DNA from: a virus
Length of the DNA: 64,000 bases
Direction: 5' to 3' (one strand)
Virus record (IMG/VR): IMGVR_UViG_3300047491_001507
Shown here: positions 683 through 46,186 of the stretch, piece by piece
Layout: each line of letters starts with the position of its first letter
How positions within the stretch are numbered: position 1 is the stretch's first letter
Position numbers and translations under genes: made by a program
Notes under the pieces: generated by a model
What the model was told of the DNA's origin: nothing
What the model saw: the letters and a program-made list of their open reading frames with translations, nothing else
Databases searched by the model: none

Positions 683-1654
683 ATGACCGATCAAGAAATG
701 CTAGAAATTGCTCAATTGATGGTTGAATATTACACGGACAAAATTAACACAAAGCCATTTGTACTTCAATATCGTTTTCGTTCCCAAAATGAACGTGAAG
801 CTTGGTATGATAATGGAGAATGGCTTCCTAGTTGGGATTATGAAACAATTGAATATCGCAGAAAACCAGCAAATGAGGACTTTTATCAAAAAACACTGGA
901 AAGAACATTGGAAGAAATGTTATCCGCTTCCAAATTGATGGTCGAGTACTATCAAAATAAAATTAGTGGCACTCCCATTGAAGTTCAGTGTTGTCTTCGC
1001 ACTCCTACATTTGATAACAACTGGGAAGATGTTTCTTGTTCGGGTTGGGATATAGTAAAATACAAATATCGCAAGAAGCCTAAATTTTCAGACGATTTAG
1101 AATTTGCAATAGTAGTTGACTTTGTAGCAAATGCTCACAAAGGACAATTGCGTAAAGGCAGTAAATTGCCTTTTGTAATTCATCCATGTTCTGTTCTTAA
1201 AATCATCCGTAGTTGGGAAATTTCTGACAATACAATGCTAAAAGCTGTTTTGGCTCATGATGTTATTGAGGATTGTGAAATTTCTTATGACAAAGTTGAA
1301 GAAATTATTGGAACAGAAGCAGCAATAATTGTCAAAGAATTGACTTTTATCCCCAACAAACTTCGTTTAGTATCTGTTTCAAAGCAAAAAGCAGAATATC
1401 TTAGTAGTTTTAGCAAAAGATCATTGCAAGCATTAGTCATTAAATTGGCTGATCGTATTGATAATACTATGGATTTTTATTTGGATAATGACGCATATGC
1501 TTTGAAATATTGGGAAAAAGCAGAAGTTCTTTTTTATGCTTTTTATTCCAGAAAAAAAGAAATCGTAGAAGCATTTGGAGAAAGAACATATAAATTAATT
1601 GAAGAAAGTATTAAACAGGTGGAAGATCGGATTTATGTTAAAAAAATGGCGTAG
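683..1654 (+). CDS. HD-domain phosphohydrolase, SpoT/RelA-hydrolase-like (possible (p)ppGpp or small-alarmone hydrolase), with a duplicated N-terminal domain
   Basis: Motifs AHKGQLRKGSKLPFVIHP and LAHDVIED match the HD hydrolase domain of RelA/SpoT/Mesh1; N-terminus holds two ~65-aa internal repeats (LMVEYY..KI...WD..Y.YRKKP). Confidence 0.7.
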   Translation: MTDQEMLEIAQLMVEYYTDKINTKPFVLQYRFRSQNEREAWYDNGEWLPSWDYETIEYRRKPANEDFYQKTLERTLEEMLSASKLMVEYYQNKISGTPIEVQCCLRTPTFDNNWEDVSCSGWDIVKYKYRKKPKFSDDLEFAIVVDFVANAHKGQLRKGSKLPFVIHPCSVLKIIRSWEISDNTMLKAVLAHDVIEDCEISYDKVEEIIGTEAAIIVKELTFIPNKLRLVSVSKQKAEYLSSFSKRSLQALVIKLADRIDNTMDFYLDNDAYALKYWEKAEVLFYAFYSRKKEIVEAFGERTYKLIEESIKQVEDRIYVKKMA

Positions 1655-3766: not shown

Positions 3767-3986
3767 CGAAATTATTCAAGATTTTTTAGAATGCACAAGA
3801 TCCTTAGATAAAGCAATTACCGATGCTGGCGGGAGTAAGCTGGATATAGATGATTTGGAAAGAATGACCGCATTGGAACTTATTTCTTTGATTTGTACCA
3901 ATGGGATTCGTTTTCATGTTAAGCAAACAGTGAGTGCCAAGGTATTGAAAAAAACAGATCTTATTATTGAAAGCTGTAGAACATGA
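3756..3986 (+). CDS. hypothetical protein
   Basis: 76-aa ORF; GGAGG SD. Confidence 0.45.
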   Translation: MTHNEIIQDFLECTRSLDKAITDAGGSKLDIDDLERMTALELISLICTNGIRFHVKQTVSAKVLKKTDLIIESCRT

Positions 3987-4522
3987 AAGAAGATATATTT
4001 GATATACCTGATGAAATCTCGATAGATTTGCCAAAATTTTGTAAATTAGGCGGTAAAAACTTCGCTATCAAGGTGCTTTCTCGCAAAGACGCTGCAAACT
4101 TTACATGTGAAGTGCCATGGGCTGCAATTAGTATTGCATCTTTTCCTAATGAATGGCCAAATTTATCGGAAGACAACAGAGTAAATCTGCTTCAGTTGTA
4201 CTTTTTCGATCAAACAGTGCCAGGGGAACATGCTTTTACAGAAAATCATGCTAAAGAAATTATTCGATTTGTCGGAGAAGCATGGGGAAAAATCGATTGT
4301 TTGTTAGTTCATTGCGAGGCAGGACTTTCCAGATCGCCTGGAGTAGCTGCTGCTATTGCTAGGATTTTTCAAGGTGAAGGTCAGGATGCAGCTTATTTTA
4401 AGCAGTATTATCCAAATTATCTGGTTTACAAGATTTTGTTGGAAACTTACTTTGGAAAAAATGTGAATTTACATCCACAAAATGAAGAAACATATTGGGA
4501 CGACAATGATTTTATAGGTTAG
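3983..4522 (+). CDS. Cys-based phosphatase of the dual-specificity/PTP superfamily (could be a protein or an RNA 5'-phosphatase)
   Basis: Active-site signature VHCEAGLSRSPGV, i.e. the HCx5R(S/T) P-loop of PTP/DUSP enzymes. Confidence 0.7.
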   Translation: MKEDIFDIPDEISIDLPKFCKLGGKNFAIKVLSRKDAANFTCEVPWAAISIASFPNEWPNLSEDNRVNLLQLYFFDQTVPGEHAFTENHAKEIIRFVGEAWGKIDCLLVHCEAGLSRSPGVAAAIARIFQGEGQDAAYFKQYYPNYLVYKILLETYFGKNVNLHPQNEETYWDDNDFIG

Positions 4523-5059: not shown

Positions 5060-5398
5060 ATGCTGACACGACGAAACGTTCTGAAATGGGCTGCTGGATT
5101 ATTTGCATCATTTCCTTTTATGAAAGGAATGACAAAGGAAGCAGTTTCTAATAAGAACTATGGCATGGCAGGAATTGTTATTTGCGAAACACCATCTACA
5201 TTTAAATTTGAGGTTCGCAAAGCTCAAACCATGAATGAGTTTACTAAAATTGGACATCAGATTTTGCCAGAAGCAACACGAATTAGTGTTGTATTTTCTG
5301 AAACAAGATATAATGCTCCTAACAGATATATTTTATACGTTTTATTGGATGGGCCTGGGACGGAATGGAAAGTTCTCAACGGAGTAGCCATATCATGA
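5060..5398 (+). CDS. putative Tat-secreted protein
   Basis: N-terminal TRRNVLKWAAGLFA resembles a twin-arginine signal; C-terminal domain paralogous to 4791..5057. Confidence 0.5.
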   Translation: MLTRRNVLKWAAGLFASFPFMKGMTKEAVSNKNYGMAGIVICETPSTFKFEVRKAQTMNEFTKIGHQILPEATRISVVFSETRYNAPNRYILYVLLDGPGTEWKVLNGVAIS

Positions 5399-6225
5399 GC
5401 AAAGACAGTTTAGGCGATAGAATGAAGTTTTTTGAACAGAGATTTTCCATCTCTGTCATGCCCAAAACCCCTATTCTTGCGAGAATAGATGGACGTTCCT
5501 TCCACAGCTTTACCAGAGGTTTGGAAAGACCTTACGACATTCGGCTTTCCAACCTAATGATAGCAACTACTAAATTTCTGGTTGCCGAAACCAATGCACG
5601 TTGTGGATATACACAAAGTGACGAGATTTCTTTGGTTTGGCTAACAGAAGACGATCATGAAGAGACGTTTTTTGGCGGAAAACTCTCTAAATTAACTTCT
5701 GTGATAGGCTCGTTAGCAACAGCATATTTCAATAAGCATTTATCTGCTTATATCCCAGAAAAGGCAGATGCGATGCCGGTTTTTGATAATCGGGTCTGGG
5801 AATTGCCTACTTACGAAGAAGTAGCAAATTATTTCATCTGGCGGGAACAGGATGCTGTAAGAAATAGCATTCAAATGTCGGCCAGATCAGTATTTAGTCA
5901 CAGTGAATGCCACAAAAAGAACACATCTCAATTACAAGAGATGTTGTTTTCTAAGGGAATTAACTGGAATGATTATCCTCGATTTTTCCGTCGAGGCACC
6001 TATATTCGTCGTAGGGTGGTGGAACGGGAATTTACTCCAGAAGAATTAGCTAATTTGCCACCGAAGCACAATGCTTTGAAAGACCCAAATCTTCCTATTC
6101 GTCGTACAGTGATTATGGAGGAGGACTTTCCGATTTTGACGAAGGTTCAGAATCGGTCTGGAGTAATTTTGTTTGGTGCTGATCCCATAGTACAAAACGA
6201 TGTATTGGTGATTGATGAAGCATGA
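5395..6225 (+). CDS. Thg1-like protein (tRNA-His guanylyltransferase family, 3'-5' nucleotidyltransferase)
   Basis: RIDGRSFHSFTRGL and GYTQSDEISLVW match conserved Thg1/TLP motifs; start set at the ATG at 5395 (ATGA overlap). Confidence 0.7.
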   Translation: MSKDSLGDRMKFFEQRFSISVMPKTPILARIDGRSFHSFTRGLERPYDIRLSNLMIATTKFLVAETNARCGYTQSDEISLVWLTEDDHEETFFGGKLSKLTSVIGSLATAYFNKHLSAYIPEKADAMPVFDNRVWELPTYEEVANYFIWREQDAVRNSIQMSARSVFSHSECHKKNTSQLQEMLFSKGINWNDYPRFFRRGTYIRRRVVEREFTPEELANLPPKHNALKDPNLPIRRTVIMEEDFPILTKVQNRSGVILFGADPIVQNDVLVIDEA

Positions 6226-6422
6226 GTAACAAAGATAGAATCGGCATGACAGAAGTCATGAAAGATTGTTTGTCTGTATTACTTGATGCTGGCTTAACAG
6301 CAAACCAACTTAAGATTGCACAAGAGTGTTTGGCTAACTATGCACTATGTGCCTGTATGGACTCTAAAGTACATGAAGAATCTTTAGAGATTCTAAATTA
6401 TAGGAAAATTAAATCATTATAG
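6222..6422 (+). CDS. hypothetical protein
   Basis: 66-aa ORF; ATGA overlap with the Thg1-like gene. Confidence 0.45.
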   Translation: MSNKDRIGMTEVMKDCLSVLLDAGLTANQLKIAQECLANYALCACMDSKVHEESLEILNYRKIKSL

Positions 6423-6443
6423 TCGAAAGTCTCTAGGTGCTCA

Positions 6444-6653
6444 ATGAATAAATGGAAAATCGTTCAATATTATGGATGGACTGAAAATGGCAAACCGCTC
6501 TTGCCCAGTATGGACAATAAGGCGATTGCCACGTTTAAGTCATATTGGCGTGCATGGATTTACAAGTTTTTCCATTACGATTTTGCAGCGGAATCTGCTT
6601 ACAAAACGTCATTTATTTGGAAGATTGAGAAAGCAAAGGAGATCAAAAGATGA
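6444..6653 (+). CDS. hypothetical Trp-rich small protein
   Basis: 69-aa ORF ending in an ATGA overlap with the next gene; preferred over the overlapping 6472..6657 frame. Confidence 0.45.
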   Translation: MNKWKIVQYYGWTENGKPLLPSMDNKAIATFKSYWRAWIYKFFHYDFAAESAYKTSFIWKIEKAKEIKR

Positions 6654-6946
6654 TTAAGTTATTTCACAACACTCTTTCTGAGGACGAATATGCTGGTTGG
6701 TACATTTGTGAGGCTAGAGATCTTTCATTTCAAGTTGAAGATAATAAGTCTTGTTACGAATTGATTCAAAAAGCCTTAGAGCAAGAAATTCTAGATGTTT
6801 GTTTGCAATTAAAATTGGATGTAGGAGAAGAAGACGGTTTTACTCCAATTCTAGATGAAGAAAACGGAAAGAAATTGACTGAAGAATTATTGCGTCGAGA
6901 TTGGAAAAAAGAGTTTATTCCTATTGAGGGCCATGAAAATGATTAA
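6650..6946 (+). CDS. hypothetical protein, tandem duplicate pair (copy 1)
   Basis: MIKLFHNTLSEDEYAGWYI...EILDVCLQLKL is almost identical to the next gene. Confidence 0.5.
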   Translation: MIKLFHNTLSEDEYAGWYICEARDLSFQVEDNKSCYELIQKALEQEILDVCLQLKLDVGEEDGFTPILDEENGKKLTEELLRRDWKKEFIPIEGHEND

Positions 6947-7238
6947 GTTATTTTACAACGCCCTTTCTTACGACGAATATGCTGGCTGGTACATTAGTGA
7001 GCCTAGAGAACTTCCGTTTAAATCAGAAGGGCTAAAAGATGATGAATTTTATGCCAAATTGGCAATCATTCGAAAACATCTAGAGCAAGAAATTTTAGAT
7101 GTTTGTTTGTATTTAAAATTAGAAGTTGAAGAGGTAGGTGGTTATACTCCAGTTTTAGATGAAGAAAACGGGAAGAAATTGACTGAAGAGTTATTGCGTC
7201 GAGGTTGGAAAAAAGAGTTTATTCCTATTGGACCATGA
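6939..7238 (+). CDS. hypothetical protein, tandem duplicate pair (copy 2)
   Basis: Starts MIKLFYNALSYDEYAGWYI; paralog of 6650..6946. Confidence 0.5.
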   Translation: MIKLFYNALSYDEYAGWYISEPRELPFKSEGLKDDEFYAKLAIIRKHLEQEILDVCLYLKLEVEEVGGYTPVLDEENGKKLTEELLRRGWKKEFIPIGP

Positions 7239-7960
7239 AAATGAAAATCTTGATCACATCTGGCGGAACAAAAGTCCCAATCGATAAGGTTAGAGACATC
7301 ACAAACATGAGTCATGGAACCTTTGGCTCCAGAATTGCTTCTGTTGCATTGGAAGAAGGGCATGAAGTTTGTTTCTTGTGTGCCAAAGGATCTCGTACTC
7401 CATTCCGAAACGACTTCGATTTCTATAATAATAGCAAAGCAATCAATAAAGCAATGGAGTACTTTTTGTTTTGCGAAGAATATTGCGAACAATATTCCGA
7501 AACAGAATTTAGAAATTATGATGATTATGAAAAATTGCTTAGATTGCATTTAGATTGGAAGCCCGATGTGGTGATTTTGGCGGCTGCTGTAAGCGATTAT
7601 GGCGTTGCCAATTATGTGGATGGCAAAATCCGTACTCAAGATAATCTCCAAATTAATCTGGAACCGTTGCCTAAAATCATCGCTACAGTTAAGGAACGTC
7701 TTCCTGATTGTTTTTTGGTGGGATTTAAACTGTTGGTTTATGCTTCAGAGACAGAATTGATTGAGGAAGCTAACAAGAGCATCATGAATAATCGTTGCGA
7801 TTTGGTGGTTGCTAATGATTTAGCGTCACTTCAAGCCGACAATCATCGGTTATTTTTGGTTCGTCCTGATCAAGTTCCAGTGAGGTTTTGCAAGAATGAT
7901 GCACTGGAAGATCCTTACTATTTGGCACGCAAAGTGATTGAAGCAGCTACAGAAAGGTAA
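7235..7960 (+). CDS. coaB: phosphopantothenate-cysteine ligase (CoaB / PPCS)
   Basis: MKILITSGGTKVPIDKVRDITNMSHGTFG at the N-terminus and LVGFKLLVYASETE...CDLVVANDL, matching the CoaB nucleotide-binding and GFxAET motifs. Confidence 0.8.
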   Translation: MKMKILITSGGTKVPIDKVRDITNMSHGTFGSRIASVALEEGHEVCFLCAKGSRTPFRNDFDFYNNSKAINKAMEYFLFCEEYCEQYSETEFRNYDDYEKLLRLHLDWKPDVVILAAAVSDYGVANYVDGKIRTQDNLQINLEPLPKIIATVKERLPDCFLVGFKLLVYASETELIEEANKSIMNNRCDLVVANDLASLQADNHRLFLVRPDQVPVRFCKNDALEDPYYLARKVIEAATER

Positions 7961-7964
7961 CGAG

Positions 7965-8798
7965 ATGATAAATATTACGCCACAACGGGCCTTTCAATGT
8001 GCATTAAATCAAGGAAAGCGTTTTCCTGAAATGGAACCAGCTATCCTTGCCGATCCATATTGCGCTTATTGTTATGTTTTACATATTTTAAATAAACGTG
8101 TACGCAAAAAACCTAAACGTTGGGCAGAAGCAGAGAAGGTAATTATTGATGAAAAAAGAGCAGAATTGGCTTTCAATTATGCCAAAGAAATAATCCAAGG
8201 TCGTTGGGAAGAAGCAGAAGAGGTAATTGCTGCCAGCCCAAGATTTGCTTATTTATATGCTAATTATATAATTCAGGGACGTTGGCCTAAAGGTGAACTG
8301 GTAATTGCACAAAGTCCACATTATGCATATTGTTATGCAAAAGATGTGCTAAAATCTCGTTGGTCTGAAGCGGAGAAAACAATTGCAAAAGATCCAGAGT
8401 ATGCTTATAAGTACGCTTACTACGTAATTAAAGGTCGCTTTTCTGAAGCGGAGAAAACAATTGCAAAAGATCCAGAGTATGCTTATAAGTACGCTTGTGA
8501 CGTAGTTTGTGGCCGCTTTCCTGAAGCAGAAGCAACACTTGCAAAAAGCGATTATTATGCTTACAGATATGCTAGTGACGTAGTTCGTGGTCGTTGGGCT
8601 AAAGGCGAAAGAGCAATAATTACTGATCGAAATTGTGCCTGTTCATATGCTAAGGATGTGCTAAAATCCCGCTGGCGTAAAGCAGAGCCATTAATTGCTC
8701 AAAATCACTATCTCGCTTATGAATATGCAAGCCATTTTAAGTTAGAAATGTTTATTACTTTTAAATCCAAGAAACAAAAAAAAGGTGTCAAAAAATGA
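7965..8798 (+). CDS. 33-aa repeat family protein (YAxxYAxxVIKGRWPEGExAIA repeats)
   Basis: About seven tandem copies of the ~33-aa repeat; paralog of 25121.., 27273.., 32708.. and the - strand copies. Confidence 0.6.
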   Translation: MINITPQRAFQCALNQGKRFPEMEPAILADPYCAYCYVLHILNKRVRKKPKRWAEAEKVIIDEKRAELAFNYAKEIIQGRWEEAEEVIAASPRFAYLYANYIIQGRWPKGELVIAQSPHYAYCYAKDVLKSRWSEAEKTIAKDPEYAYKYAYYVIKGRFSEAEKTIAKDPEYAYKYACDVVCGRFPEAEATLAKSDYYAYRYASDVVRGRWAKGERAIITDRNCACSYAKDVLKSRWRKAEPLIAQNHYLAYEYASHFKLEMFITFKSKKQKKGVKK

Positions 8799-9148
8799 TC
8801 GTTGACAGACGAGAATTTGATTTTTTTACCGTAGAGGCAAAGAAAAATACTAACCATGTAGATTTTATAATTTACGAGGGAATAGGATATCTGGAAGCTT
8901 TTGAAAAACAAATAGAACTAGGCATCGATCCAGCACTTGGTCCTAATTATGACGACGGGCCATTGGTTAAAGGCTATGTTAAATGGGATGGATGTTCAAA
9001 TTGGGACTTCCCTCATGAGGCCAATACAACTCATCCATTGCATTTTTGTGGTAAACTAGAAGCAGCATGTTTTGGCAAAATGATTGTTGAACTTTATGAG
9101 TGGGCGGCTGAATTGATGCCAGAACATAAAAGCATGATATTAGAATAA
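8795..9148 (+). CDS. hypothetical protein
   Basis: 117-aa ORF; ATGA overlap. Confidence 0.5.
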   Translation: MIVDRREFDFFTVEAKKNTNHVDFIIYEGIGYLEAFEKQIELGIDPALGPNYDDGPLVKGYVKWDGCSNWDFPHEANTTHPLHFCGKLEAACFGKMIVELYEWAAELMPEHKSMILE

Positions 9149-9156
9149 ACACACTT

Positions 9157-9471
9157 ATGAAAGGGTTGAAAATGTACGTTTTTGTATCGTTTAGCAATGT
9201 AGATACTAAGAAAAATCTTGGCTGTTGTATTGTTCGGAGCAATGAAGAAAATTGGCTTGATGATTGTGATAGATTAGGTCTAAGACCAAATGGAGCAAAT
9301 AATATTATAGGCTATCCATTAAACGAAGAAGAATTTCAAGCACAAGGAATAGAATTGAATCGTTTTTATACTCGTGAAGAAATGCTTCAAGAAGGCTTTG
9401 AAAAAATAAGTCCAAACAATGAAACGCATAGCGTTCACCGATTCGTTTGTGTCAAAGAAAGAACAACATGA
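9157..9471 (+). CDS. hypothetical protein
   Basis: 104-aa ORF in the + gene chain. Confidence 0.45.
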   Translation: MKGLKMYVFVSFSNVDTKKNLGCCIVRSNEENWLDDCDRLGLRPNGANNIIGYPLNEEEFQAQGIELNRFYTREEMLQEGFEKISPNNETHSVHRFVCVKERTT

Positions 9472-10022
9472 TTATACCAATCTGGACTGATGTGGATGGC
9501 AAAGACTGGGAAGAATGCCTGTCTGATCTAAATCTTATTGATTTACTTATCGAGGCTTATGCTAAACAATTAAAGAATGATGTTTTTCAGTATTTACAGG
9601 ATCAAGGACATCAGCCTGTTCCCGTAATGCCACAACGTATGTCAGCGGACGTTGCTCAGTTTATTGGGAATAATGAGATTTTGGCTGAAGCCATCAAAGT
9701 CTGCAAGGAAAAAATCAAGATACAAAATGAAAAGGATGCATGTGAAGCTTGGGCTAGACATGAAGCATGGATTGATGGTCCATATAAGAAAAATTGTCAA
9801 AAAGCCCGCAATCTTGGCATACAAGCCAGAAAAGATGGATTGCCAAGGATTTGTAATATTACTGATGATCCTGAACTTTGCCATAACGGTACGATTTTCA
9901 GATGTTATGCTGATGCTTGGTGTTCTGGTTGGGATGGATTTACTATTCCTAAAGAATTTCTTCAAGTAGAACAAAATTTAGCCAAATTGCCAACAAGACC
10001 AATGACCGAAGAGGATTTCTAA
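9468..10022 (+). CDS. hypothetical Cys-rich protein
   Basis: ORF 9447..10022 trimmed to the ATG at 9468; TAATG junction with coaC. Confidence 0.5.
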   Translation: MIIPIWTDVDGKDWEECLSDLNLIDLLIEAYAKQLKNDVFQYLQDQGHQPVPVMPQRMSADVAQFIGNNEILAEAIKVCKEKIKIQNEKDACEAWARHEAWIDGPYKKNCQKARNLGIQARKDGLPRICNITDDPELCHNGTIFRCYADAWCSGWDGFTIPKEFLQVEQNLAKLPTRPMTEEDF

Positions 10023-11131
10023 TGTACAACATTCTTCTAGGCGTCACAGGTAGCGTAGCTTCCACCCTGACAGTAAAAATTGTTAAAGCTTTGCAAAGCT
10101 TAGGAGAAGTACGGGTTATTGCCACTAAATGTGGGGAACAATTCCTACGTCCCGAAGACAAAATTGAAATTGGCAAAGTTTATCTGGAAGAAGATGAATG
10201 GCCTGATTTCTATTGGGAAAAAGATGATCCCGTCATGCACATTGAACTGCGTAAGTGGGCAAGTGCTTTAGTAATTGCTCCATTATCCGCCAATACAATG
10301 GCAAAAATGGTTCATGGAATTTGCGATAATTTGCTAACAAGTGTTTTTCGTGCTTGGGATCACCAAAGACCCGTAATTGTGGCTCCTGCCATGAATTCCA
10401 TTATGTGGGAGAATAATCCTACAGGAAATCAAGTAGAAATTTTGAAGAATTGGGGTATTAAGGTTGTGTCTCCACAATCTAAAGTTTTAGCCTGTGGAGA
10501 CGAGGGCATAGGTGCTATGGCAGATATTTCTAAAATAGTGGAAGTAACTGCCGCTAGTTTGGTTTGGGATTTCCCGTTAAAAACTATCTATGGAGTTCCA
10601 ACTTGCAATGGAATTCCTATCAATCATCATCCAGGGGCTTTTGGGTTTCACCGAAAACACAATTTCCATACAGGCGTTGACCTTTATACTGAAGACAAGG
10701 CTTCAGTGAGTGCGGTAGAAAATGGCAGAATAGTAAAATTGGAGCAATTTACTGGCCCAGAAGTAGGTCATGAATGGTGGGAGAAAACCTGGGGATTGAT
10801 GATTGAAGGACCGTCTGGAGTAGTAAATTATGGCGAAATCAGCATGCCGCCTTCGTGGATTAATGTAGGTGATAAAGTCATCAAAGGACAATATATTGGT
10901 AGTGTGAAACGGGTTTTGTTTCCTGATCGGTTACGTCCTGATATCCCAGGTCATTCATGCAGTATGCTACATATAGAATTGTATAAGCATGGGGTTAGGG
11001 ATTTTACAGGTTGGGAAGATCCTGCCAAAAATCCTGATTTGCTTGATCCTACGCCTTATTTGATTAAGGCAAGATATGCACCAAATAAGACATTAACTTG
11101 GGATAATCCAGAGGGAAAGGAAGTAGGATAA
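10022..11131 (+). CDS. coaC: phosphopantothenoylcysteine decarboxylase (CoaC flavoprotein) fused to a C-terminal M23 (LytM-type) peptidase domain
   Basis: N-terminal half has LLGVTGSVAS, APAMNSIMW (PxMNxxMW) and VLACGDEGIGAM (the ACGD catalytic Cys of PPC-DC); C-terminal half has HTGVDLY...NGRIV and HSCSMLHIELY (HxxxD / HxH M23 motifs). Confidence 0.75.
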   Translation: MYNILLGVTGSVASTLTVKIVKALQSLGEVRVIATKCGEQFLRPEDKIEIGKVYLEEDEWPDFYWEKDDPVMHIELRKWASALVIAPLSANTMAKMVHGICDNLLTSVFRAWDHQRPVIVAPAMNSIMWENNPTGNQVEILKNWGIKVVSPQSKVLACGDEGIGAMADISKIVEVTAASLVWDFPLKTIYGVPTCNGIPINHHPGAFGFHRKHNFHTGVDLYTEDKASVSAVENGRIVKLEQFTGPEVGHEWWEKTWGLMIEGPSGVVNYGEISMPPSWINVGDKVIKGQYIGSVKRVLFPDRLRPDIPGHSCSMLHIELYKHGVRDFTGWEDPAKNPDLLDPTPYLIKARYAPNKTLTWDNPEGKEVG

Positions 11132-11132
11132 T

Positions 11133-11324
11133 ATGCTTAAAATTACACTCAGCAATGGAGCAGAATTTACAGTTGATAAAGAACGATGGACTGAAAATGG
11201 TCTTGTAGGTCACTTTATCATGCCTGATGGCGAACTCACATGTGGAGAATGTGTGTTTTTTCATAAAAATTCTGCCAAAAGAAAATCTGATACACCATAC
11301 ATTGTAATGTTAGTGGAGAAATAA
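11133..11324 (+). CDS. hypothetical small protein
   Basis: 63-aa ORF immediately after coaC. Confidence 0.45.
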   Translation: MLKITLSNGAEFTVDKERWTENGLVGHFIMPDGELTCGECVFFHKNSAKRKSDTPYIVMLVEK

Positions 11325-11626
11325 TGACAGAAGAAAACGAAATTATCAAACAATATCTTGTGGATAATCCTTATGATCCAAACGACCCAAGTACTTTGCC
11401 GCCAGGATGGGAAGTTAGATTTAACCGAAGAGGTCGTTTTTATCAATATAAAACCATTGAAGAGGTAGAGCGAAGGAATAACTTGTCGTTTAGCGATGAG
11501 TGGGAAAAAATGAAGGCAAGTATGCAAGAAGGAGACGAGGTTTGGTTGTATGGCAATGATGTAGAAATACTTTGTTTAGTACGAAATAATGAAATCATTA
11601 AAGAAATATGTTTTACGTGTTTATAA
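11324..11626 (+). CDS. hypothetical protein
   Basis: 100-aa ORF. Confidence 0.5.
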   Translation: MTEENEIIKQYLVDNPYDPNDPSTLPPGWEVRFNRRGRFYQYKTIEEVERRNNLSFSDEWEKMKASMQEGDEVWLYGNDVEILCLVRNNEIIKEICFTCL

Positions 11627-11636
11627 GGAGATTTAC

Positions 11637-11918
11637 ATGATTACTGGAGAAGGGGGGTTTATCAGTAGGATGATGCCGCCTACTGATTGGAATCATGGTC
11701 CGATACCGGTAGAGTGTTTTGATAAGTCACTAAGTAAACAACAGATATTTGAAATGCTAAAATCTGTCTATCTTGAGCCAGATCGTGTTAGGAAATTGGC
11801 AGCAAGTGATGATGAAACAGAAATTTGGCGTACAAAATTTGCTATAGAAATTGTAGCAGAAATGGATGCTGATACGATTTGGTTTTTCAATTTGCAGAAT
11901 GAGAAGGAATCGGGATAA
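11637..11918 (+). CDS. hypothetical protein
   Basis: ORF 11589.. trimmed to the ATG at 11637 preceded by an AAGGAG SD. Confidence 0.5.
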   Translation: MITGEGGFISRMMPPTDWNHGPIPVECFDKSLSKQQIFEMLKSVYLEPDRVRKLAASDDETEIWRTKFAIEIVAEMDADTIWFFNLQNEKESG

Positions 11919-12196
11919 TGCGTATTTTTGACTGTGACCAAGACCAAGAAAAGATGAAAGGAACGCATGGTTTTGGCTATGATACAGAGTTTGGCACAGG
12001 CACAGGTTATGGCCGAGGCAATGGCGGCGGTCCTTGTGATGGAATATTGTCAGATTGCAATGGGCTTGGTGACGTATGTGGCCGTGGACATGGAAACGGC
12101 ATGTATGAAACTAATTATGGATTTCCCGAAAGTTGCAATAAAATCTTTGAAATTCCCAAATTGGCTGGAACTTTCGGTTTAGAAGTATATGATTGA
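11918..12196 (+). CDS. Gly-rich GxGxG small protein family member
   Basis: GFGYDTEFGTGTGYGRGNGGGPCDG...GHGNG low-complexity, like the 55-62 kb array. Confidence 0.5.
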   Translation: MRIFDCDQDQEKMKGTHGFGYDTEFGTGTGYGRGNGGGPCDGILSDCNGLGDVCGRGHGNGMYETNYGFPESCNKIFEIPKLAGTFGLEVYD

Positions 12197-12205
12197 GGAA
12201 AAATA

Positions 12206-12541
12206 ATGAAAGAAAAATTATTCAAAGAATGTTATGATTCTGTTGTTGCCAGAGGCAAAACAATAAAAAAATTAGAGAAACGGATTAGCAAACTTCGCCG
12301 TAAAAGTGCTAGTCAGCATCGTTATTTGAGCAAACCAAGAGTTAAAGTAACAATTGCCAATGCAGAAGAAGAAAATGTTGTTTTGCAAATGCAAATTGCA
12401 CAATTGGAAAATGCCAATAAAGTTTTGAAAAAACAGGTCGAAGAACTGAAAAGTCATCGCATGAGTAAAATGGATCTATATTTGATTAGATTCTGTATGA
12501 TATCCTTGGTTGCAGTTGCAGTATACATTTGTTGTCGATAA
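12206..12541 (+). CDS. RKSASQH-motif family protein with coiled coil and C-terminal TM
   Basis: GKTIKKLEKRISKLRRKSASQHRYL is shared with 13666.., 29587.. and 29751.. Confidence 0.5.
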   Translation: MKEKLFKECYDSVVARGKTIKKLEKRISKLRRKSASQHRYLSKPRVKVTIANAEEENVVLQMQIAQLENANKVLKKQVEELKSHRMSKMDLYLIRFCMISLVAVAVYICCR

Positions 12542-21030: not shown

Positions 21031-21054
21031 TTCTTTAACTTGAGAGAGGGAATT

Positions 21055-21804
21055 ATGTTTACGACAATTTTGATTGCTGTGGTTGTGGTGGTTTGTTTGG
21101 CTGCGATTAGTCCTCCTGCTCGTCGTTTTTTCAAGGCAATTGGACTATGGGGTGGGGCACAAGCGGATAAAGGAGCAGAGGCAGTTCTGAATGCTGATCC
21201 TCTTGGCGTCCTAAAAACCCAAATCAAAAATGCTGCTGAAAATGGCAAGCAAGCTAATGCTGTGGTAGTGGCTGCTGCTAAACAGTTGGTTTCTTTGGAA
21301 AATCAAATTGCCGATGACCTAAAGGAACAGCAACGACTTACCACTCGTATTGAATCGGTTTTGGCTAAAGGCGATCCCAATAAGAATGCCGCAAAGTACG
21401 CTGCTGATTTGGCTCGGGTTGAAGAAAATCTGAAAGCCAATGAAGAACAGAAGGCAATCGCTCAACAGCAATATGATGACAATCTGAAGTTGGTTGAACG
21501 ATTTGAACGGGAGATTCAAGAAGCCCGAAAGGATGCGGCTGCTCTTGGGGCTCAATTGCAGCAATCTGAGGCAGAAAAGAATTTGAATCAAATGTCTGCT
21601 GCCCTCAAGGATCGGCTTAATGTTGGCGATTTGGCTGCGGCACGCCAGAGAGTTAAGGACCAAATTAATGAGAATCGAGGAGCCTCCAAGGCATCTCGTG
21701 ATCTAAATCGAGTTGCTCTGGCTGAAGAAGAAGATGAGGAATTGGAGCGATCTGCTGCGGCAGAAGCTGTTCTGGCTAGGTTCCAAAAACCCGTAACAGA
21801 ATAA
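21055..21804 (+). CDS. PspA/IM30/Vipp1-family protein (ESCRT-III-like membrane remodelling) with hydrophobic N-terminus
   Basis: Long coiled-coil with PspA-like segments (...LENQIADDLKEQQRLTTRIE...); GAGGGAA SD; higher-GC codon usage than the surroundings. Confidence 0.65.
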   Translation: MFTTILIAVVVVVCLAAISPPARRFFKAIGLWGGAQADKGAEAVLNADPLGVLKTQIKNAAENGKQANAVVVAAAKQLVSLENQIADDLKEQQRLTTRIESVLAKGDPNKNAAKYAADLARVEENLKANEEQKAIAQQQYDDNLKLVERFEREIQEARKDAAALGAQLQQSEAEKNLNQMSAALKDRLNVGDLAAARQRVKDQINENRGASKASRDLNRVALAEEEDEELERSAAAEAVLARFQKPVTE

Positions 21805-25120: not shown

Positions 25121-26881
25121 ATGGAATTTACAAGTGCATCTGAAGCTCTTAAGTATGTGATGAAAAATGGAACAGGCGGTCGTGATGGAACTGACGCACT
25201 CAATGAAATTGCAACAAGTGCAGAATGTTCTTATCTTTGTGCTGCGAATGATTTTAAGGGACGTTTTCCTTTGGGAGAACCAGCAATTGCCACCGATGCA
25301 TATTATGCTTATATGTATGCCAATCATGTAATTAAAGGCAGATTTCCTGAAGCCGAAGCAACAATTGCTAAAAGTCCAATCTACGCTTTTTATTATACCA
25401 GAGATATAATTAAGCGTAGATTCCCTGAATGTGAAAAAGCAATGGTGTCTAATTCGTACTATTTAGGCCAGTATGTTGATTTTTTGGGATTGGATATTGC
25501 AATTGTGGAAAAACCAACAATGACTGCCAAGGATGTAATTAAGGGCAGATTTCGAGAGGAGGTAATTGCACAGGACGCACAATATGCTTATATGTATGCC
25601 AATGAAGTAATTCATGGTCGTTTTGCTGAAGGCGAAGCAGCAATTGCCACCGATGCACAATGTGCTTATATGTATGCCAATGAAGTAATAAAAGGGCGTT
25701 TTGCTGAAGGTGAAGCAGCAATTGCTCAAATTGCCAATTATTCTTATATGTATGCTAAAAATGTAATCAAAGCTCGTTGGCCTGAGGGCGAAAAAGCAAT
25801 TGCACAGCACGGATATCTTTCTTATTTGTATGCCAAGGATGTAATAAAAGGTAGATTTCCTGCTGGAGAACCGGCAATTCTTAAAGGTGATTCAGAATGG
25901 ATAAAAGGATATATAAAAACTTTCAAATTAAATCTTGTTAGTAGTTTTCTAGAAGATGATTGTTCTTTCGAGGAACAGCAGATTGTTGCAGAAAAACCAC
26001 GTTTCACAACTGCTGAAGAAGCTTATAGTTATGCTTTGAGTAAAAACCAGCCATCTCCTGAGTGTGAAGCGGTAATTGCTCAAGATGCCAAATGGTCGCA
26101 TTTGTATGCTTATGATATTATTCATGGACGATTTCCCGCTGGAGAACCAGTAATTGCTCAAAGTGCCAGTTATTCTTACGCATATGCAATAAATGTAATA
26201 AAAGGGCGTTTTGCTGAAGGTGAACCAGCAATTGCTAAAAATACTGATCATGCTTACAAATATGCCAAATATGTAATAAAAGGGCGTTGGCCAGAAGGCG
26301 AACCAGCTATTGCTAAAAATGTATTATGTTCCTTTGAATACGCTAGAGACGTAATTCATGATCGTTTTCCTGCTGGTGAACCAATCATTATGGGAAACCT
26401 CTGGTATTCTAGGGAATATCGAAACGTTTTCAAATTAAAGCTTGGTTTTCTAGAAGACGAACAGCAGATCCCAGCCGAAGCTTTTTCATCTCCTGAAAAA
26501 GCATATAGGCATGCTCGTGAAGTAGCTAAAGTACGTTGTCCGAAATTAGAGCCAATAATCAAAGAAGATGCGGAATGGGCTTACAAATACGCCAATGAAG
26601 TAATAAAAGGGCGTTTTGCTGAAGGCGAAGCAGCAATTGCCAAAAGTCCACTATATGCATGTTATTATGCTTGCGATGTACTCAATGGACCATTTCCAGC
26701 AGGAGAGCAGGCAATTCTTGGAAGTGTGGAATACATCTACAAATATGCCTTGAATGCACTAAAGGGGCGTTGGAGAAAAGCAGAGCCAATGATTGTTAAG
26801 GATCGTTATTTTGCACTAGGCTATGCTCGATTTTTCAATTTGGAAGTTACCACTGGTTTTACAGAGAAAGAATCGAAATGA
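25121..26881 (+). CDS. 33-aa repeat family protein (about 16 repeats)
   Basis: Iterated ...AIAxDAxYAYMYANEVIKGRFAEGE... units. Confidence 0.65.
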   Translation: MEFTSASEALKYVMKNGTGGRDGTDALNEIATSAECSYLCAANDFKGRFPLGEPAIATDAYYAYMYANHVIKGRFPEAEATIAKSPIYAFYYTRDIIKRRFPECEKAMVSNSYYLGQYVDFLGLDIAIVEKPTMTAKDVIKGRFREEVIAQDAQYAYMYANEVIHGRFAEGEAAIATDAQCAYMYANEVIKGRFAEGEAAIAQIANYSYMYAKNVIKARWPEGEKAIAQHGYLSYLYAKDVIKGRFPAGEPAILKGDSEWIKGYIKTFKLNLVSSFLEDDCSFEEQQIVAEKPRFTTAEEAYSYALSKNQPSPECEAVIAQDAKWSHLYAYDIIHGRFPAGEPVIAQSASYSYAYAINVIKGRFAEGEPAIAKNTDHAYKYAKYVIKGRWPEGEPAIAKNVLCSFEYARDVIHDRFPAGEPIIMGNLWYSREYRNVFKLKLGFLEDEQQIPAEAFSSPEKAYRHAREVAKVRCPKLEPIIKEDAEWAYKYANEVIKGRFAEGEAAIAKSPLYACYYACDVLNGPFPAGEQAILGSVEYIYKYALNALKGRWRKAEPMIVKDRYFALGYARFFNLEVTTGFTEKESK

Positions 26882-27272: not shown

Positions 27273-29504
27273 ATGAACGTGAATCCTGAAATAGTACGAA
27301 AAGCTTACAATTGTGCTGTGAGTTCTGACAATCGTTGTCCTGAATGGGAAGCAATCATTGCTACTGATGCATCTCACTCTTATAAATATGCTCTTAATCA
27401 TCTTGAAGGTCGTCGTTTTCTAGAAGGCGAAGCGGTAATTGCAAAAGACGCACAATGTGCCTTTTTTTATGCTAGAGATGTGATTGGTGGACGCTGGCCT
27501 GAAGCAGAAGAGGCAATTGCTACAGATGTACAATATGCCTTTTATTATGCTCGTAATGTGATTAAGGGTAGATTTCCAGAAGGCGAAAAGGCAATTGCCA
27601 CTGATGGTCATCTTGCTTTTTTATATGCTAAATTCACAGGAATGGATATTACTTTTGTTGAAAAACTTAAGTTTGCTAATCCAGCAGATGCTTATCGTTA
27701 TGCTTTCAATCATCCAGATAAGCGTTATCCTGAAGCGGAAGAGGTAATAGTAACAAATGCATATGTATCATATCTTTATGTCTGCAATGTTCTGAAAAGG
27801 CGTTGGGCAGAAGGTGAAGCGGTAATTGCAAAAAACGCACAAAATGCCTTTTTTTATGCTAGAGATGTGATTGGCGGACGCTGGCCTGAAGCAGAAGAGG
27901 CAATTGCTACAGATGCAAAATACGCCTGTTTGTATGCTATGGATGTAATTAAAGGGCGTTTTGCTGAAGGCGAACCAGCTATTGCTCAGAGTGCAGATTG
28001 GGCTTGGCTTTATGCTAAGAGCGTAATTAAGAGAAGATTTCCTGAAGCAGAAAAAGCAATTGCTCAGGTTAAATCTATTAATAGGGAATATTGTGATAAA
28101 TTCCCGTTGAAATTTGATAGTCCATCAAGTGCTTATCGTTATGCTATTGCCCACCCAAAGCAATGTTGTCCTGAAGTAGAAGATAAAATAGCAGAAAATG
28201 CCTACATGTCATATCTTTATGCTCTTCATGTTTTAAAATCTCGATTTCTTAAGGGAGAGAAAGCAATTGCTCAAGCAGCACCAACTGCTTATATTTATGC
28301 CAAAGACATTATTAAAGGTAGGTTTCCTGAGGCAGAACCTGCTATTGCTAAAGATGCATATTATGCATTTCTTTATGCTTTGCAGATAATTAAAGGACGT
28401 TGGCCCGAAGCAGAGCCAACAATTATCAAAAATGCGGAATGGGCTTATCGTTATGCCGAAAAAATAATAAAGGCACGTTGGCCTGAGGCAGAAGCAGTAA
28501 TTGCTAAAAGCTCACCTTGGGCTTATAATTATGCCGTAGATATGATTAAGGATCGTTGGCCTGAGGCAGAATCTACGATCCTAGCATCAGCAGATGCATC
28601 CAAATATGCCAATAACTTTAAATTAACAATTACGCTGGAAAAACCGAAATTTACAACGCCAGTAGAAGCTTATGGCTATGCTAGAGATATAGTGAAAGGT
28701 CGTTGTCCTGAAGCAGAGCCGATGATTGCTCAGGATGCACAGTTTGCTGCTCTTTATGCCAAGAGCATAATTCAGGGTCGTTGGCCTGAAGGCGAAAAGG
28801 TGATTGCTCAGGATGCACATTGGGCTTGTTTTTATGCTATAAATGTAATCAAAGCTCGTTGGCCTGAGGGCGAAAAAGCAATTGCTCAGGATGCACATTA
28901 TGCTTATAGATATATTAAATATGTGATAAAAGATCGTTGGCCTGAAGCAGAGCCGATGATTGCTCAGGATGCATATTACGCTTGTTTTTATGCTATGAAT
29001 ACAATCAAAAGCCGTTGGCCTGAAGGTGAAGAGGCAATTGCTACAGATTCGTATCTTTACAAGAAATATTGCAAGGAATTTTCAATAGCAGAAGGTTATA
29101 ACCCGAAATTAATGACTCCAGTAGAAGCTTATAGTTACGCTAAAGATGTGTTAAAAGGTCGTTGTTCCGAATGCGAAGCAACAATTATTCAAAGTCCAAT
29201 TTTTGCATATCGTTATGCTCAAGATGTGTTAAAAGGTCGCTGGATTGAGGCAGAACCAGTAATCGCTACTGATCCTGGCATTGCATATCTCTATGCAGAC
29301 AAGATAATTAGAGGAAGATTTCCTGAGGCAGAAGTAGAAATTTCACGATCTGTATTTGCCTCCAAATATGCTGCTCTTTTTGGATTGGAATTTGCTGGTT
29401 TTAAACCAGAATTGACAAAAAGTAAAGAATCTGTTACTTTGGATGAAATTCTGACAAGACTTGAAAATTTGGAATCAAAATTGCACAATATGTTTTTATG
29501 CTAA
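27273..29504 (+). CDS. 33-aa repeat family protein (about 20 repeats) with C-terminal coiled coil
   Basis: Iterated VIKGRWPEAEExIA units over 743 aa. Confidence 0.65.
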   Translation: MNVNPEIVRKAYNCAVSSDNRCPEWEAIIATDASHSYKYALNHLEGRRFLEGEAVIAKDAQCAFFYARDVIGGRWPEAEEAIATDVQYAFYYARNVIKGRFPEGEKAIATDGHLAFLYAKFTGMDITFVEKLKFANPADAYRYAFNHPDKRYPEAEEVIVTNAYVSYLYVCNVLKRRWAEGEAVIAKNAQNAFFYARDVIGGRWPEAEEAIATDAKYACLYAMDVIKGRFAEGEPAIAQSADWAWLYAKSVIKRRFPEAEKAIAQVKSINREYCDKFPLKFDSPSSAYRYAIAHPKQCCPEVEDKIAENAYMSYLYALHVLKSRFLKGEKAIAQAAPTAYIYAKDIIKGRFPEAEPAIAKDAYYAFLYALQIIKGRWPEAEPTIIKNAEWAYRYAEKIIKARWPEAEAVIAKSSPWAYNYAVDMIKDRWPEAESTILASADASKYANNFKLTITLEKPKFTTPVEAYGYARDIVKGRCPEAEPMIAQDAQFAALYAKSIIQGRWPEGEKVIAQDAHWACFYAINVIKARWPEGEKAIAQDAHYAYRYIKYVIKDRWPEAEPMIAQDAYYACFYAMNTIKSRWPEGEEAIATDSYLYKKYCKEFSIAEGYNPKLMTPVEAYSYAKDVLKGRCSECEATIIQSPIFAYRYAQDVLKGRWIEAEPVIATDPGIAYLYADKIIRGRFPEAEVEISRSVFASKYAALFGLEFAGFKPELTKSKESVTLDEILTRLENLESKLHNMFLC

Positions 29505-32512: not shown

Positions 32513-32694
32513 TGTCCAAAGAAAAGAAATGGTTGGAATACGCCCATCTTCATCCTGTAGAATGGAAATCCTACTTAGGTAGCTGTAATTGTTATGTTTG
32601 TGTGAAATATCGAGCAGATTTTGAACAGTGGCTAAAAAAACAAGACATTTCTCAAATTAATTCCATGAAATGGAAGGGAAATCGTGTCATCTAA
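32509..32694 (+). CDS. hypothetical small Cys-containing protein
   Basis: 61-aa ORF; ATGA overlap. Confidence 0.45.
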   Translation: MMSKEKKWLEYAHLHPVEWKSYLGSCNCYVCVKYRADFEQWLKKQDISQINSMKWKGNRVI

Positions 32695-32707
32695 AGGAGT
32701 TGAAGTC

Positions 32708-34048
32708 ATGAAATTTAAATCACTACAAGAAGCTTATAATCATGTTCTTGTTTATGGGCCTTCTCCTGAAGCAGAATCTGTCATTGCTACAAATTCAGCA
32801 TGGTCTTATGTTTATGCTCGTGATATAATTAAAGGCAGATTCCCTTTGGGCGAGGCAGCGATTGCCACAGATACAATCAGATCTTATGAATACGCTCTCA
32901 ATGTGCTTAAAGGTAGATTTCCTGAAGGCGAGAAAATAATTGCCACAAATCCACGGTGGTCATATGAATATGCTCTCAATGTGATTAAAGGCAGATTTCC
33001 TGAAGGCGAACCGGAAATTGCTGCAAGTAGTGTTTATGCTTGGCTTTATTCTAGAAGTGTTGGCTTGCTCAAACCGGAATTGAAATTTATGAAACCAGCA
33101 GAAGCTTACGATCATGCTAAAGATGTGGTAAAAGGTCGTTGTCCTGAAGCAGAAGTAGAAATTATTAAAAGTGCAGAATATTCTTATTATTATGCAACAA
33201 ATGTTTTGAAGTCTCGCTTTCCTGAAGGCGAAGCAACAATTGCTCAGGATGCACAATGGTCTTATCATTATGCTCTTTATGTTTTGAATGGGCGATTTCC
33301 GTTGGGCGAAGCAGTAATTATTCAAGATCCATTTTATGCATGTTACTATGCAGTAAATGTTATGAAAGATCGTTGGCCTGAAGCAGAGGCGACGATTTCA
33401 AGGTCTACTAACCTTGTCAGTAAATATGCAGATCAGTTTAAATTGGCGGTGACACTTGCTGACACACCGTTGAAATTTGCAACAATAAAAGAAGCTTATA
33501 GTTATGCTCAGAATCATCCAAGAGAACATTGTCCTGAAGCAGAAAAGATGATCGCTCAAGATGCTTCAACTTCTTATTTGTATGCTAGATATGTGATTAG
33601 AAAGCGTTTTCCAGAAGGCGAAGTAACAATTGCAAGAAACCCCTCTTCTGCTTATTATTATGCCAACGAAGTGATTGGTGGACGTTGGCCTGAATGTGAA
33701 GCAGAACTTGCTAAAAATGTACAATATGCTTATCTTTATGTTGTAAATATAATCAAGGGTCGTTGGTTTGAAGCTGAAGCAGCGATTGTTCAAAACCCAG
33801 AATATGCTTGCCTATATGCGATAAATGTTCTAAAGGCTCGTTGGCCTGAAGCAGAAGAAGGAATTTTGAAACATTCTGATCCTGTTCATGCTTATAAATA
33901 TGCTGAACATTTTAAATTGACATTCTCTAGTTTCATGCCGAAACCGAAATCCGAATTGACACTAAGTTCTGCAATTGATAAAATTGACACCATAGAAAAA
34001 CAAATAGCAAGTTTGGAAAAAAGACTTTCTAATTTGGAAGAACAATAA
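32708..34048 (+). CDS. 33-aa repeat family protein with C-terminal coiled coil
   Basis: AAGGAG SD before the ATG at 32708 (the track start at 32684 is a GTG); iterated VIKGRFPEGE units. Confidence 0.65.
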   Translation: MKFKSLQEAYNHVLVYGPSPEAESVIATNSAWSYVYARDIIKGRFPLGEAAIATDTIRSYEYALNVLKGRFPEGEKIIATNPRWSYEYALNVIKGRFPEGEPEIAASSVYAWLYSRSVGLLKPELKFMKPAEAYDHAKDVVKGRCPEAEVEIIKSAEYSYYYATNVLKSRFPEGEATIAQDAQWSYHYALYVLNGRFPLGEAVIIQDPFYACYYAVNVMKDRWPEAEATISRSTNLVSKYADQFKLAVTLADTPLKFATIKEAYSYAQNHPREHCPEAEKMIAQDASTSYLYARYVIRKRFPEGEVTIARNPSSAYYYANEVIGGRWPECEAELAKNVQYAYLYVVNIIKGRWFEAEAAIVQNPEYACLYAINVLKARWPEAEEGILKHSDPVHAYKYAEHFKLTFSSFMPKPKSELTLSSAIDKIDTIEKQIASLEKRLSNLEEQ

Positions 34049-39706: not shown

Positions 39707-39735
39707 TCGCCGTTCCTTGGAGCGGCGATTGTTAT
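39707..39735. terminator. possible bidirectional terminator at the convergent strand switch
   Basis: TCGCCG-ttccttggag-CGGCGA hairpin flanked by T-runs on both strands, between the last + gene and the first - gene. Confidence 0.35.
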
Positions 39736-42019: not shown

Positions 42020-42035
42020 ATGTAATATATAGAGT

Positions 42036-44685: not shown

Positions 44686-44700
44686 TATTCCGCTCTCTTT

Positions 44701-44910: not shown

Positions 44911-45002
44911 TTTTAAGAACGCTCCTTGGAACCTCTACTTTTAAATATTAACAAAAACACGATTGCCACCATCATCAAAACATTCAACTCGTTGATAACA
45001 TC

Positions 45003-45191: not shown

Positions 45192-45219
45192 AATTAATTC
45201 CTTTCATTTTCAAACATTC

Positions 45220-46163: not shown

Positions 46164-46186
46164 CTTTAATCTGCAATTTCTAGTAC

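Follow-up and report, generated by a model that had tools for sequence, protein, structure and literature searches.

We analysed a 64,000-nucleotide stretch of viral DNA (IMG/VR record IMGVR_UViG_3300047491_001507; hereafter the window) around two genes, one encoding a CoaB-type phosphopantothenate–cysteine ligase and the other a CoaC-type phosphopantothenoylcysteine decarboxylase (PPCDC) fused to a C-terminal domain resembling M23 metallopeptidases (Table 1). An earlier reading of the window, made from the sequence alone (the original prediction), had described these open reading frames (ORFs) as split coenzyme A (CoA) biosynthesis genes, with CoaC joined to an M23 peptidase domain. Both ORFs lie where it had placed them, on the plus strand, and the CoaB and CoaC identities were confirmed; the peptidase assignment stood in part.

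The CoaB gene product matched PF04127 (DFP/CoaB) with an E-value of 3.5e-32 (112 bits; cut-off 22), and the motifs on which the assignment had been based, SGGTKVPIDKVRDITN and VGFKLLVYASE, were both present. Residues N210, D279 and K289 and the GGT loop are catalytic or nucleotide-binding elements of E. coli CoaB, and alignment to E. coli Dfp, taken from the K-12 genome, revealed equivalents of all of them in the window protein. The paired segments read SGGT...ITNMS and GPT...ISNHS, AAAVSDY and AAVADY, and GKIRT and EKIKK in the window and E. coli proteins, respectively, and the window CoaB carries an inserted segment at residues ~60–105 relative to the E. coli enzyme. The closest solved relative was PDB 2gk4 from S. 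pneumoniae (E = 2e-28), deposited as a 'conserved hypothetical protein'. Like the Streptococcus/Enterococcus CoaB that this structure represents (NCBIfam coaB_strep), the window CoaB is a separate ligase, of a type ~230 residues long; the NCBIfam coaB models were its best matches, but at 125–137 bits, about half their equivalog cut-offs (125 bits against 217 for coaB_strep and 137 against 265 for PRK06732).

In the 369-residue fusion protein, PF02441 (Flavoprotein) spanned residues 3–177 (E = 2.5e-30), and the CoaC motifs PAMNSIMW and LACGD were found as described before. The alignment showed the histidine of HIELR, the PAMN motif and the ACGDxGxGAM clamp with its cysteine. This clamp cysteine reduces the enethiol intermediate in PPCDC and separates PPCDC from decarboxylases of the EpiD/MrsD type, as known from AtHAL3a and Dfp. 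H73, N125 and C158 of the window protein align with H75, N125 and C158 of E. coli K-12 Dfp and were invariant across 38 homologues. The nearest PDB sequences were monofunctional eukaryotic enzymes, human PPCDC (1qzu; 156 bits, E = 1e-44) and AtHAL3a (1e20; 150 bits, E = 7e-43), whereas bacterial CoaBC, EpiD and MrsD reached 42–60 bits only; in this comparison the window CoaC was farther from LanD-type decarboxylases (EpiD 46–59 bits, MrsD 42 bits) than from PPCDC. As with CoaB, scores fell below the equivalog cut-offs (127 bits against 261 for coaC_strep and 126 against 220 for coaBC_dfp).

The window CoaC resembles human PPCDC and AtHAL3a (1e20, 1mvl), stand-alone flavoproteins of ~180 residues, in sharing ~50% identity over residues 2–183 together with the HIELR histidine, the PAMN asparagine, and the clamp with its reducing cysteine; it differs from them in adding a C-terminal M23-fold domain of ~190 residues and in sitting beside CoaB in a phage genome. 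E. coli Dfp (CoaBC), which carries out the same two reactions, aligns with the window proteins at H75, N125, C158, N210, D279 and K289 at 31–34% identity, but has CoaC fused to CoaB, whereas the window encodes CoaB separately and fuses CoaC to the M23-like domain. Streptococci, enterococci and eukaryotes are known to encode CoaB and CoaC separately. The description of the window genes as separate was upheld, and both keep their key residues in the comparison with Dfp.

The C-terminal domain belongs to the M23/LytM fold. The window protein missed the gathering score of PF01551 (Peptidase_M23; 23.7 bits against 28.7, residues 215–297), and phmmer with the C-terminal domain alone found no match among PDB sequences up to E = 10, a family profile being required. 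Active-site correspondences were read from alignments of this profile with PDB sequences and, by hhalign, with MepM of E. coli. A LECT2 profile match spanned the GxFxxxRxxxHxGVD segment. AlphaFold2 (AF2) models built with 38 homologues had a predicted local distance difference test (pLDDT) score of 93.3 and a predicted template modelling (pTM) score of 0.89 for the full-length fusion, and a pLDDT of 94.7 for residues 178–369 alone; the pTM suggests that, in the model, the two domains are fixed in arrangement to each other.

M23 peptidases are defined by the motifs H(x)nD and HxH, with zinc bound by the histidine and aspartate of the first and the second histidine of the latter, and with water activated by the first histidine of HxH and by a histidine ~30 residues upstream, His260 in LytM (PMC9662197). 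The HxGxD motif claimed by the original prediction is HTGVD at residues 216–220, aligning to HRGVD of MepM. The HxH motif that it had also claimed was not found in the C-terminal half, where SMLHIE (M315-L-H317) aligns with PHLHYE of MepM, so that the position of the MepM HLH reads MLH. The third catalytic histidine is replaced by Glu272, the segment YGE aligning with YAH of zoocin A, YGH of phage 2638A and YMH of MepM. The zinc-triad positions (H216, D220 and H317) are thus retained, whereas both water-activating histidines have been exchanged, for Glu272 and Met315. Absence of the M23 catalytic residues had been named beforehand as a ground for rejecting the peptidase reading, and this applies to half of the site: the metal ligands are present, and the histidines are replaced. 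Relative to active M23B peptidases (LytM, lysostaphin, zoocin A and MepM), the window protein has Met315 for the first histidine of HxH and Glu272 for that of YxH, lacks a secretion signal and a cell-wall-binding domain, and has a cytoplasmic partner.

These replacements are a property of a large family. A phmmer search with residues 178–369 against 1.84 billion cluster representatives returned 842 clusters at E ≤ 1e-3 (575 at E ≤ 1e-10), and the best 150 of them (50% identity) were used for the residue tallies and architecture counts given here. The zinc-triad, Glu272 and Met315 positions were invariant in the 38 fusion homologues, and of the 150 representatives every one carries MLH and 147 carry Y[GA]E, so that loss of the histidines does not reflect drift. 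The most invariant residues of the family were H216, D220, H317, E272, M315, R211 and Y270, and this invariance argues for a metal site that is in use.

CoaC-M23 fusions made up 52 of the 150 clusters, and the reversed M23-CoaC order was found in two (e.g., P0168); 51 were stand-alone proteins of ~155–260 residues, and 45 had other extensions, including MutT-like NUDIX domains in both orders (P0206 and P0264; also P0249), an S-adenosylmethionine (SAM)-dependent methyltransferase (L030) and, by inspection, MORN-like repeats (P0196). PF01551 matched 136 of the 150 representatives at E < 1e-3. In a neighbor-joining ordering of 149 domains, the CoaC-fused and both reversed forms shared one half. 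Stand-alone members occur in cultured jumbo phages (PA5oct gp441, XacN1 ORF423, and Stenotrophomonas phages CM1 and RAS14; 39–44% identity), surrounded by small genes of unknown function. PA5oct gp441 and XacN1 ORF423, both labeled 'peptidase M23', are 39–43% identical to the window domain and share YGE and MLHxE, but are stand-alone proteins of ~160 residues with no CoaB or CoaC nearby, and they lack a loop, PDIPGHS, that the fused proteins have. The murein hydrolase label of PA5oct gp441 came from bioinformatics only, and the protein was undetected in virions (PMC7318152); a virion-associated entry peptidase was rejected as a role for the family on the basis of those virion mass spectrometry data (PMC7318152). 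In BFVD, the sole close structural match was A0A5E4A1D4 (164 residues, 41% identity), an entry unnamed in the database that is probably PA5oct gp441, judging from its equal length; ordinary phage M23 lysins were far more distant. PHROGs contained no dedicated family for the domain, giving weak endolysin matches only. We scanned the genomes of 185,579 bacterial and archaeal species with a pattern designed to pick up close relatives of the window domain. The single match lay on an 11.5 kb contig, labeled Neisseriaceae, of a metagenome-assembled genome; the CoaB/CoaC-M23 module is present on it as well. In all likelihood the contig is a phage fragment that was binned with the genome, and it is too weak a basis for assigning a host; within the reach of the scan no clear cellular copy was seen. 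Because the Glu272 and Met315 replacements hold across the 150 clusters, and because the domain also stands alone and joins other partners, we regard it, from these sequence comparisons, as a distinct M23-like family found almost only on phage contigs and as a module in its own right.

Two observations concern its other partners. The NUDIX domains were considered as CoA pyrophosphatases, which would have linked them to 4'-phosphopantetheine; this found no support, as they look like generic MutT/CTP-pyrophosphohydrolase types. On some viral contigs the M23-like gene adjoins divergent DFP/CoaB-like ligases (L030:8834-11104, L071:9992-12515 and L080:8426-10459), which either carry a fused class II aldolase-like domain or precede a semialdehyde-dehydrogenase-like gene. 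The L071 and L080 proteins lack the Asn210 equivalent and are therefore probably not phosphopantothenoylcysteine synthetases (PPCS).

The same CoaC-M23 fusion was widespread. A search of 5.8 billion proteins yielded more than 120 full-length homologues (47–91% identity, 340–405 residues), almost all with both Pfam domains, from JGI, ENA, Logan and NCBI data and on contigs of up to 622 kb (some of 200–620 kb), establishing the fusion as genuine. In related loci, a DFP gene of 237–270 residues lies directly 5' of the fusion (L001, L003, L007 and L008) or is separated from it by one small ORF (L004), and tblastn over all fetched loci placed CoaB 0–1 kb from CoaC-M23 in L013–L024, L040, L046 and L093; in total, this spacing held in at least 18 related loci. 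Gene order varied. In the 735 kb genome LR756501 the fusion comes first and CoaB follows three bases later; in L011 CoaB precedes a fusion with its domains reversed (M23-CoaC); in L010 CoaB, CoaC and the M23-like protein are encoded by three separate adjacent genes, the latter two as overlapping ORFs; and L048 and L055 show other orders. At least six arrangements were distinguished: CoaB, CoaC-M23; CoaC-M23, CoaB; CoaB, M23-CoaC; CoaB, CoaC, M23; CoaC, CoaB, M23; and CoaC-M23, CoaB with a spacer. We surveyed 80 loci from IMG/VR that encode the M23-like domain: CoaC was fused to it or lay within ~1.3 kb in 18, and 17 of these 18 had CoaB within 2.5 kb. Over a distance of 5 kb from the M23-like gene, CoaB was the only recurrent neighbor (21 of the 80 loci, the next real family occurring in six), and ORF clustering around these loci revealed no second conserved partner such as a holin, precursor peptide or carrier protein. 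Because the linkage survives rearrangement and permutation of domain order, it argues for functional coupling of CoaB, CoaC and the M23-like domain within the CoaC-fused clade.

The gap between CoaB and the fusion in the window, 2.07 kb, was the largest among the loci. As the original prediction had stated, it is filled by a repeat-family gene and small ORFs. There are four ORFs in all, the repeat family has multiple copies in the window, and the genes of the locus, all on the plus strand, abut or overlap, with TAATG at the end of the last inserted ORF overlapping the start of the fusion gene. Of the three small ORFs, only the first has a PHROG family, the unknown-function phrog_33479. Among the related loci retrieved up to that comparison, none contained a homologue of any of the four; since CoaB lies 0–1 kb from the fusion in those relatives, the split reported earlier is real but secondary: the module was contiguous ancestrally and was later interrupted by four lineage-specific ORFs. 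Small unrelated ORFs of 0.2–1 kb also lie between CoaB and the fusion in L014, L019, L024 and L004, which suggests that this junction is a tolerated insertion site. The repeat family has at least eight genes in the window, with a repeat of ~30–35 residues (AEKxIAKDPxYAYxYA...) and weak Pfam matches below cut-off (FRD3, HTH_35); tblastn with the inserted member located paralogues at 25.1–29.5, 32.7–34.0, 46.2–46.9, 50.0–51.4 and 63.6–63.9 kb, and the family was absent from every related locus examined. In two unrelated contigs an ADP-ribosylglycohydrolase gene adjoins the module (L004:8111-9046 and L068:10713-11597). Several records of the phage collection (H11, H12, H63, H64 and H45/H46) have CoaBC or CoaD matches that seem to stem from contaminating host DNA or host flanks: the CoaD of the Campylobacter phage A11a and A18a records is 100% identical to the E. 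coli protein, and the CoaBC match of the psiM100 record lies at its very start. Genuine phage CoaB and CoaC in that collection seem to be confined to huge uncultured phages.

Table 1. Features of the window, with the CoaB and CoaC-M23 genes first (positions in nucleotides unless marked kb).
Feature	Position	Strand	Details
CoaB-type phosphopantothenate–cysteine ligase	7235..7960	+	241 residues; alternative start ATG 7241; PF04127
CoaB motifs	GGT 7262; ITN(M)S Asn ~7298-7306; AAAVSDY 7580; GKIRT Lys ~7625	+	
CoaC domain, FMN-dependent phosphopantothenoylcysteine decarboxylase	10022..10552	+	residues 1-177; PF02441
CoaC residues	H73 10238-10240; N125 10394-10396; C158 10493-10495	+	
M23/LytM-fold domain, remodelled active site	10553..11131	+	residues 178-369; core ~195-350 and clade-specific tail
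M23-like residues	R211 10652; H216 10667; D220 10679; Y270 10829; E272 10835; M315 10964; H317 10970; E319 10976	+	
Inserted gene 1, repeat-family member	7938..8798 (likely start 7965)	+	weak below-cut-off Pfam; no PHROG family
Inserted genes 2-4, small	8795-9148; 9157-9471; 9447-10022	+	function unassigned; no Pfam match
Repeat-family copies	7965-8798; 25121-26881; 27273-29504; 32684-34048	+	
Repeat-family copies	46.2-46.9; 48.7; 50.0-51.4; 63.6-63.9 kb	-	
Tandem small paralogues	6650-6946; 6924-7238	+	68% identical; directly 5' of CoaB
Thg1-like tRNA-His guanylyltransferase	5365-6225	+	PF04446, E 3e-31; weak Thg1C match
HD_4 protein	683-1654	+	RelA/SpoT-type hydrolase-like
Dual-specificity-phosphatase-like protein	3983-4522	+	weak
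PspA/IM30-like protein	21040-21804	+	
Carbamoyltransferase	39732-41213	-	
HD-domain protein	41210-42019	-	
Radical SAM protein	42036-43019	+	
Radical SAM proteins	45220-46008; 47353-48351	-	

The window has a GC content of 37% and short, tightly packed ORFs, with the coding strand plus until ~42 kb and minus beyond. No nucleotide relative of positions 7000–11500 was found by blastn among 50,697 phage records. Protein relatives of the studied genes lie on metagenomic viral contigs of 100–735 kb, including LR756501 and many IMG/VR contigs, and the window is therefore taken to derive from a huge (jumbo) phage. A promoter and terminator scan of positions 6400–12300 gave no signal exceeding shuffled expectation. 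CoaD and CoaE were not found within the window; CoaD-like or CoaE-like genes are encoded by some other huge phages. The Thg1-like gene upstream of the locus has a 67%-identical copy in L007, ~8 kb from the CoaB/CoaC-M23 module there, and a 40%-identical copy in L028; the tandem paralogues preceding CoaB matched neither Pfam nor PHROG families. Around the strand switch (39732–48351), the carbamoyltransferase, HD-domain and three radical SAM genes might form a nucleoside or cofactor modification pathway.

How the locus may work can be proposed step by step. CoaB would ligate L-cysteine onto 4'-phosphopantothenate via an acyl-nucleotidyl intermediate, and the CoaC domain would oxidatively decarboxylate the product, with Cys158 re-reducing it to yield 4'-phosphopantetheine. 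On the residues retained, it is highly probable that the pair makes 4'-phosphopantetheine in this way (steps 2 and 3 from pantothenate to CoA). The M23-like domain would be a cytoplasmic, metal-dependent module serving this pathway and not the cell wall. It is likely not a classical peptidoglycan endopeptidase, because the catalytic features of such enzymes are incomplete, its partners are cytoplasmic metabolic enzymes and lysis genes do not co-occur with it. Taken together, we lean towards reading the locus as a three-part phage module, in which a 4'-phosphopantetheine-making pair is joined by a remodelled zinc domain in place of a classical cell-wall peptidase. For that domain, the likeliest specific role would be to bind or process a side-chain-free pantetheine-type amide or thiol received from CoaC: by our reasoning, the M23 groove suits side-chain-free, glycine-like peptides, to which the beta-alanyl-cysteamine arm of pantetheine is similar, and the thiol end would have affinity for zinc. 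Such a pantetheine-directed role is put forward tentatively; alternatively, the domain may hold CoaC in a particular assembly. A more far-reaching version, which we consider unlikely, is that the remodelled domain represents a novel metallo-amidohydrolase of the cytoplasm, or an enzyme binding thiols or pantetheine, whose targets would be the amides without side chains in 4'-phosphopantetheine or a related compound. CoaB, CoaC and the M23-like domain would then constitute a phage pathway from cysteine to cysteamine or another pantetheine-derived thiol, beyond a mere supplement to CoA, with the stand-alone and NUDIX-fused forms using 4'-phosphopantetheine or CoA of the host.

Several points weigh against this three-part module. 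CoaB and CoaC both miss the equivalog cut-offs, so that their substrates are read from residues and closest solved relatives. In about three quarters of the IMG/VR M23-like loci, neither CoaB nor CoaC lies within 10 kb, and only a few of these carry a divergent DFP-like gene; with so many unlinked members, the core activity of the domain is not strictly dependent on phage CoaBC. Likewise, phages PA5oct and XacN1 and the Stenotrophomonas jumbo phages were found neither among the CoaB matches in the phage collection nor among the CoaC matches listed for it (40 of 52 records), and the core function of the domain would therefore be independent of phage-made 4'-phosphopantetheine. The domain is also joined to MutT-like NUDIX domains, a methyltransferase and MORN-like repeats. 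Endolysins also lack signal peptides, and a cytoplasmic origin thus leaves action on the cell wall possible; moreover, a glutamate could stand in for histidine as the general base. Finally, we know of no indication that CoaBC is rate-limiting in CoA synthesis, which makes the benefit to a phage hard to see.

The best-surviving alternative, possible although we doubt it, is that the M23-like domain is a degenerate LytM-type interaction module without metal-site chemistry, which tethers or regulates CoaC or uses the CoaC oligomer as a scaffold for a protein of the host or the phage. Yeast Hal3 and Vhs3, PPCDC subunits moonlighting as phosphatase inhibitors, offer a loose analogy, and EnvC, NlpD, DipM, SpoIIQ and mammalian LECT2 resemble the window domain in combining an M23 fold with an incomplete catalytic set. 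In EnvC/NlpD-type domains, however, the zinc ligands are lost, whereas the window family keeps them (near-)invariant (H216, D220 and H317) and adds an invariant Glu/Met signature of its own; the concentration of invariance on the metal ligands, E272, M315, R211 and Y270 is the pattern usually seen at a functioning active or ligand site, and apart from CoaB and CoaC no partner gene recurs nearby. EnvC and NlpD have been described as lacking catalytic motifs and/or zinc (PMC9662197).

That the C-terminal domain is a true peptidoglycan hydrolase, endolysin-like or lysis-accessory, which reaches its substrate through holin lesions with Glu272 as general base and is fused to CoaC incidentally through gene packing, appears distinctly improbable. 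Both the HxH motif and the third histidine, which define M23 catalysis, are altered; the fusion partners are cytoplasmic metabolic enzymes; fusion to CoaC in both orders and linkage to CoaB through rearrangements would be unexpected if incidental; and holin, spanin or other lysis genes were not recurrent beside the M23-like gene in the 80 loci.

A third alternative, which we see as a long shot, is that the CoaB/CoaC-like pair adds cysteine to another carboxylate, such as a peptide or protein C-terminus or a metabolite, and decarboxylates it to an aminoethanethiol, with the M23-like domain recognizing a glycine-rich peptide in a tagging pathway or one resembling those of ribosomally synthesized and post-translationally modified peptides. 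The scores below the equivalog cut-offs would fit, as would the decarboxylation of peptidyl-cysteine by EpiD/MrsD-type HFCD enzymes, and the pairing of the M23-like gene with divergent DFP-like ligases instead of CoaC in L030, L071 and L080 suggests a variable small-molecule pathway. Yet the window CoaC is nearer to PPCDC (156 bits) than to EpiD and MrsD (42–59 bits) and keeps the clamp and reducing cysteine, the PPCS residues N210, D279 and K289 are kept in CoaB, and no conserved precursor-peptide gene lies nearby. Finally, a sequencing or assembly frameshift joining two genes, the objection that the original prediction had raised against itself and for which the separate, overlapping CoaC and M23-like ORFs of L010 might be cited, is effectively refuted by the single unbroken 369-codon ORF, by more than 120 independent clusters of ~360–400 residues from four sources (JGI, ENA, Logan and NCBI) and by the confident AF2 modelling of the junction.

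M23 folds with incomplete catalytic sets and the enzymes of CoA steps 2 and 3 are already known. In the literature searched, phage CoaB/CoaC modules, the CoaC-M23 architecture and an M23 subfamily with the Glu/Met signature were not described, and the main text of the huge-phage survey does not mention them; the architecture had been called unusual, and it is indeed unreported there, yet it is common among metagenomic contigs of huge phages. For PA5oct gp441 and many metagenome proteins labeled 'peptidase M23' or 'phosphopantothenoylcysteine decarboxylase', the annotation is probably wrong or incomplete. If CoaB and CoaC are active, huge phages would rewire the supply of 4'-phosphopantetheine and CoA in their hosts, an auxiliary function at the level of a cofactor. 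A catalytic M23-like domain, if confirmed, would widen the chemistry of a fold held to be a peptidoglycan hydrolase or a protein-interaction hub, and, should the metallo-amidohydrolase or pantetheine reading be true, it would represent the first non-peptidoglycan catalysis for the M23 fold and a new small-molecule pathway of huge phages.

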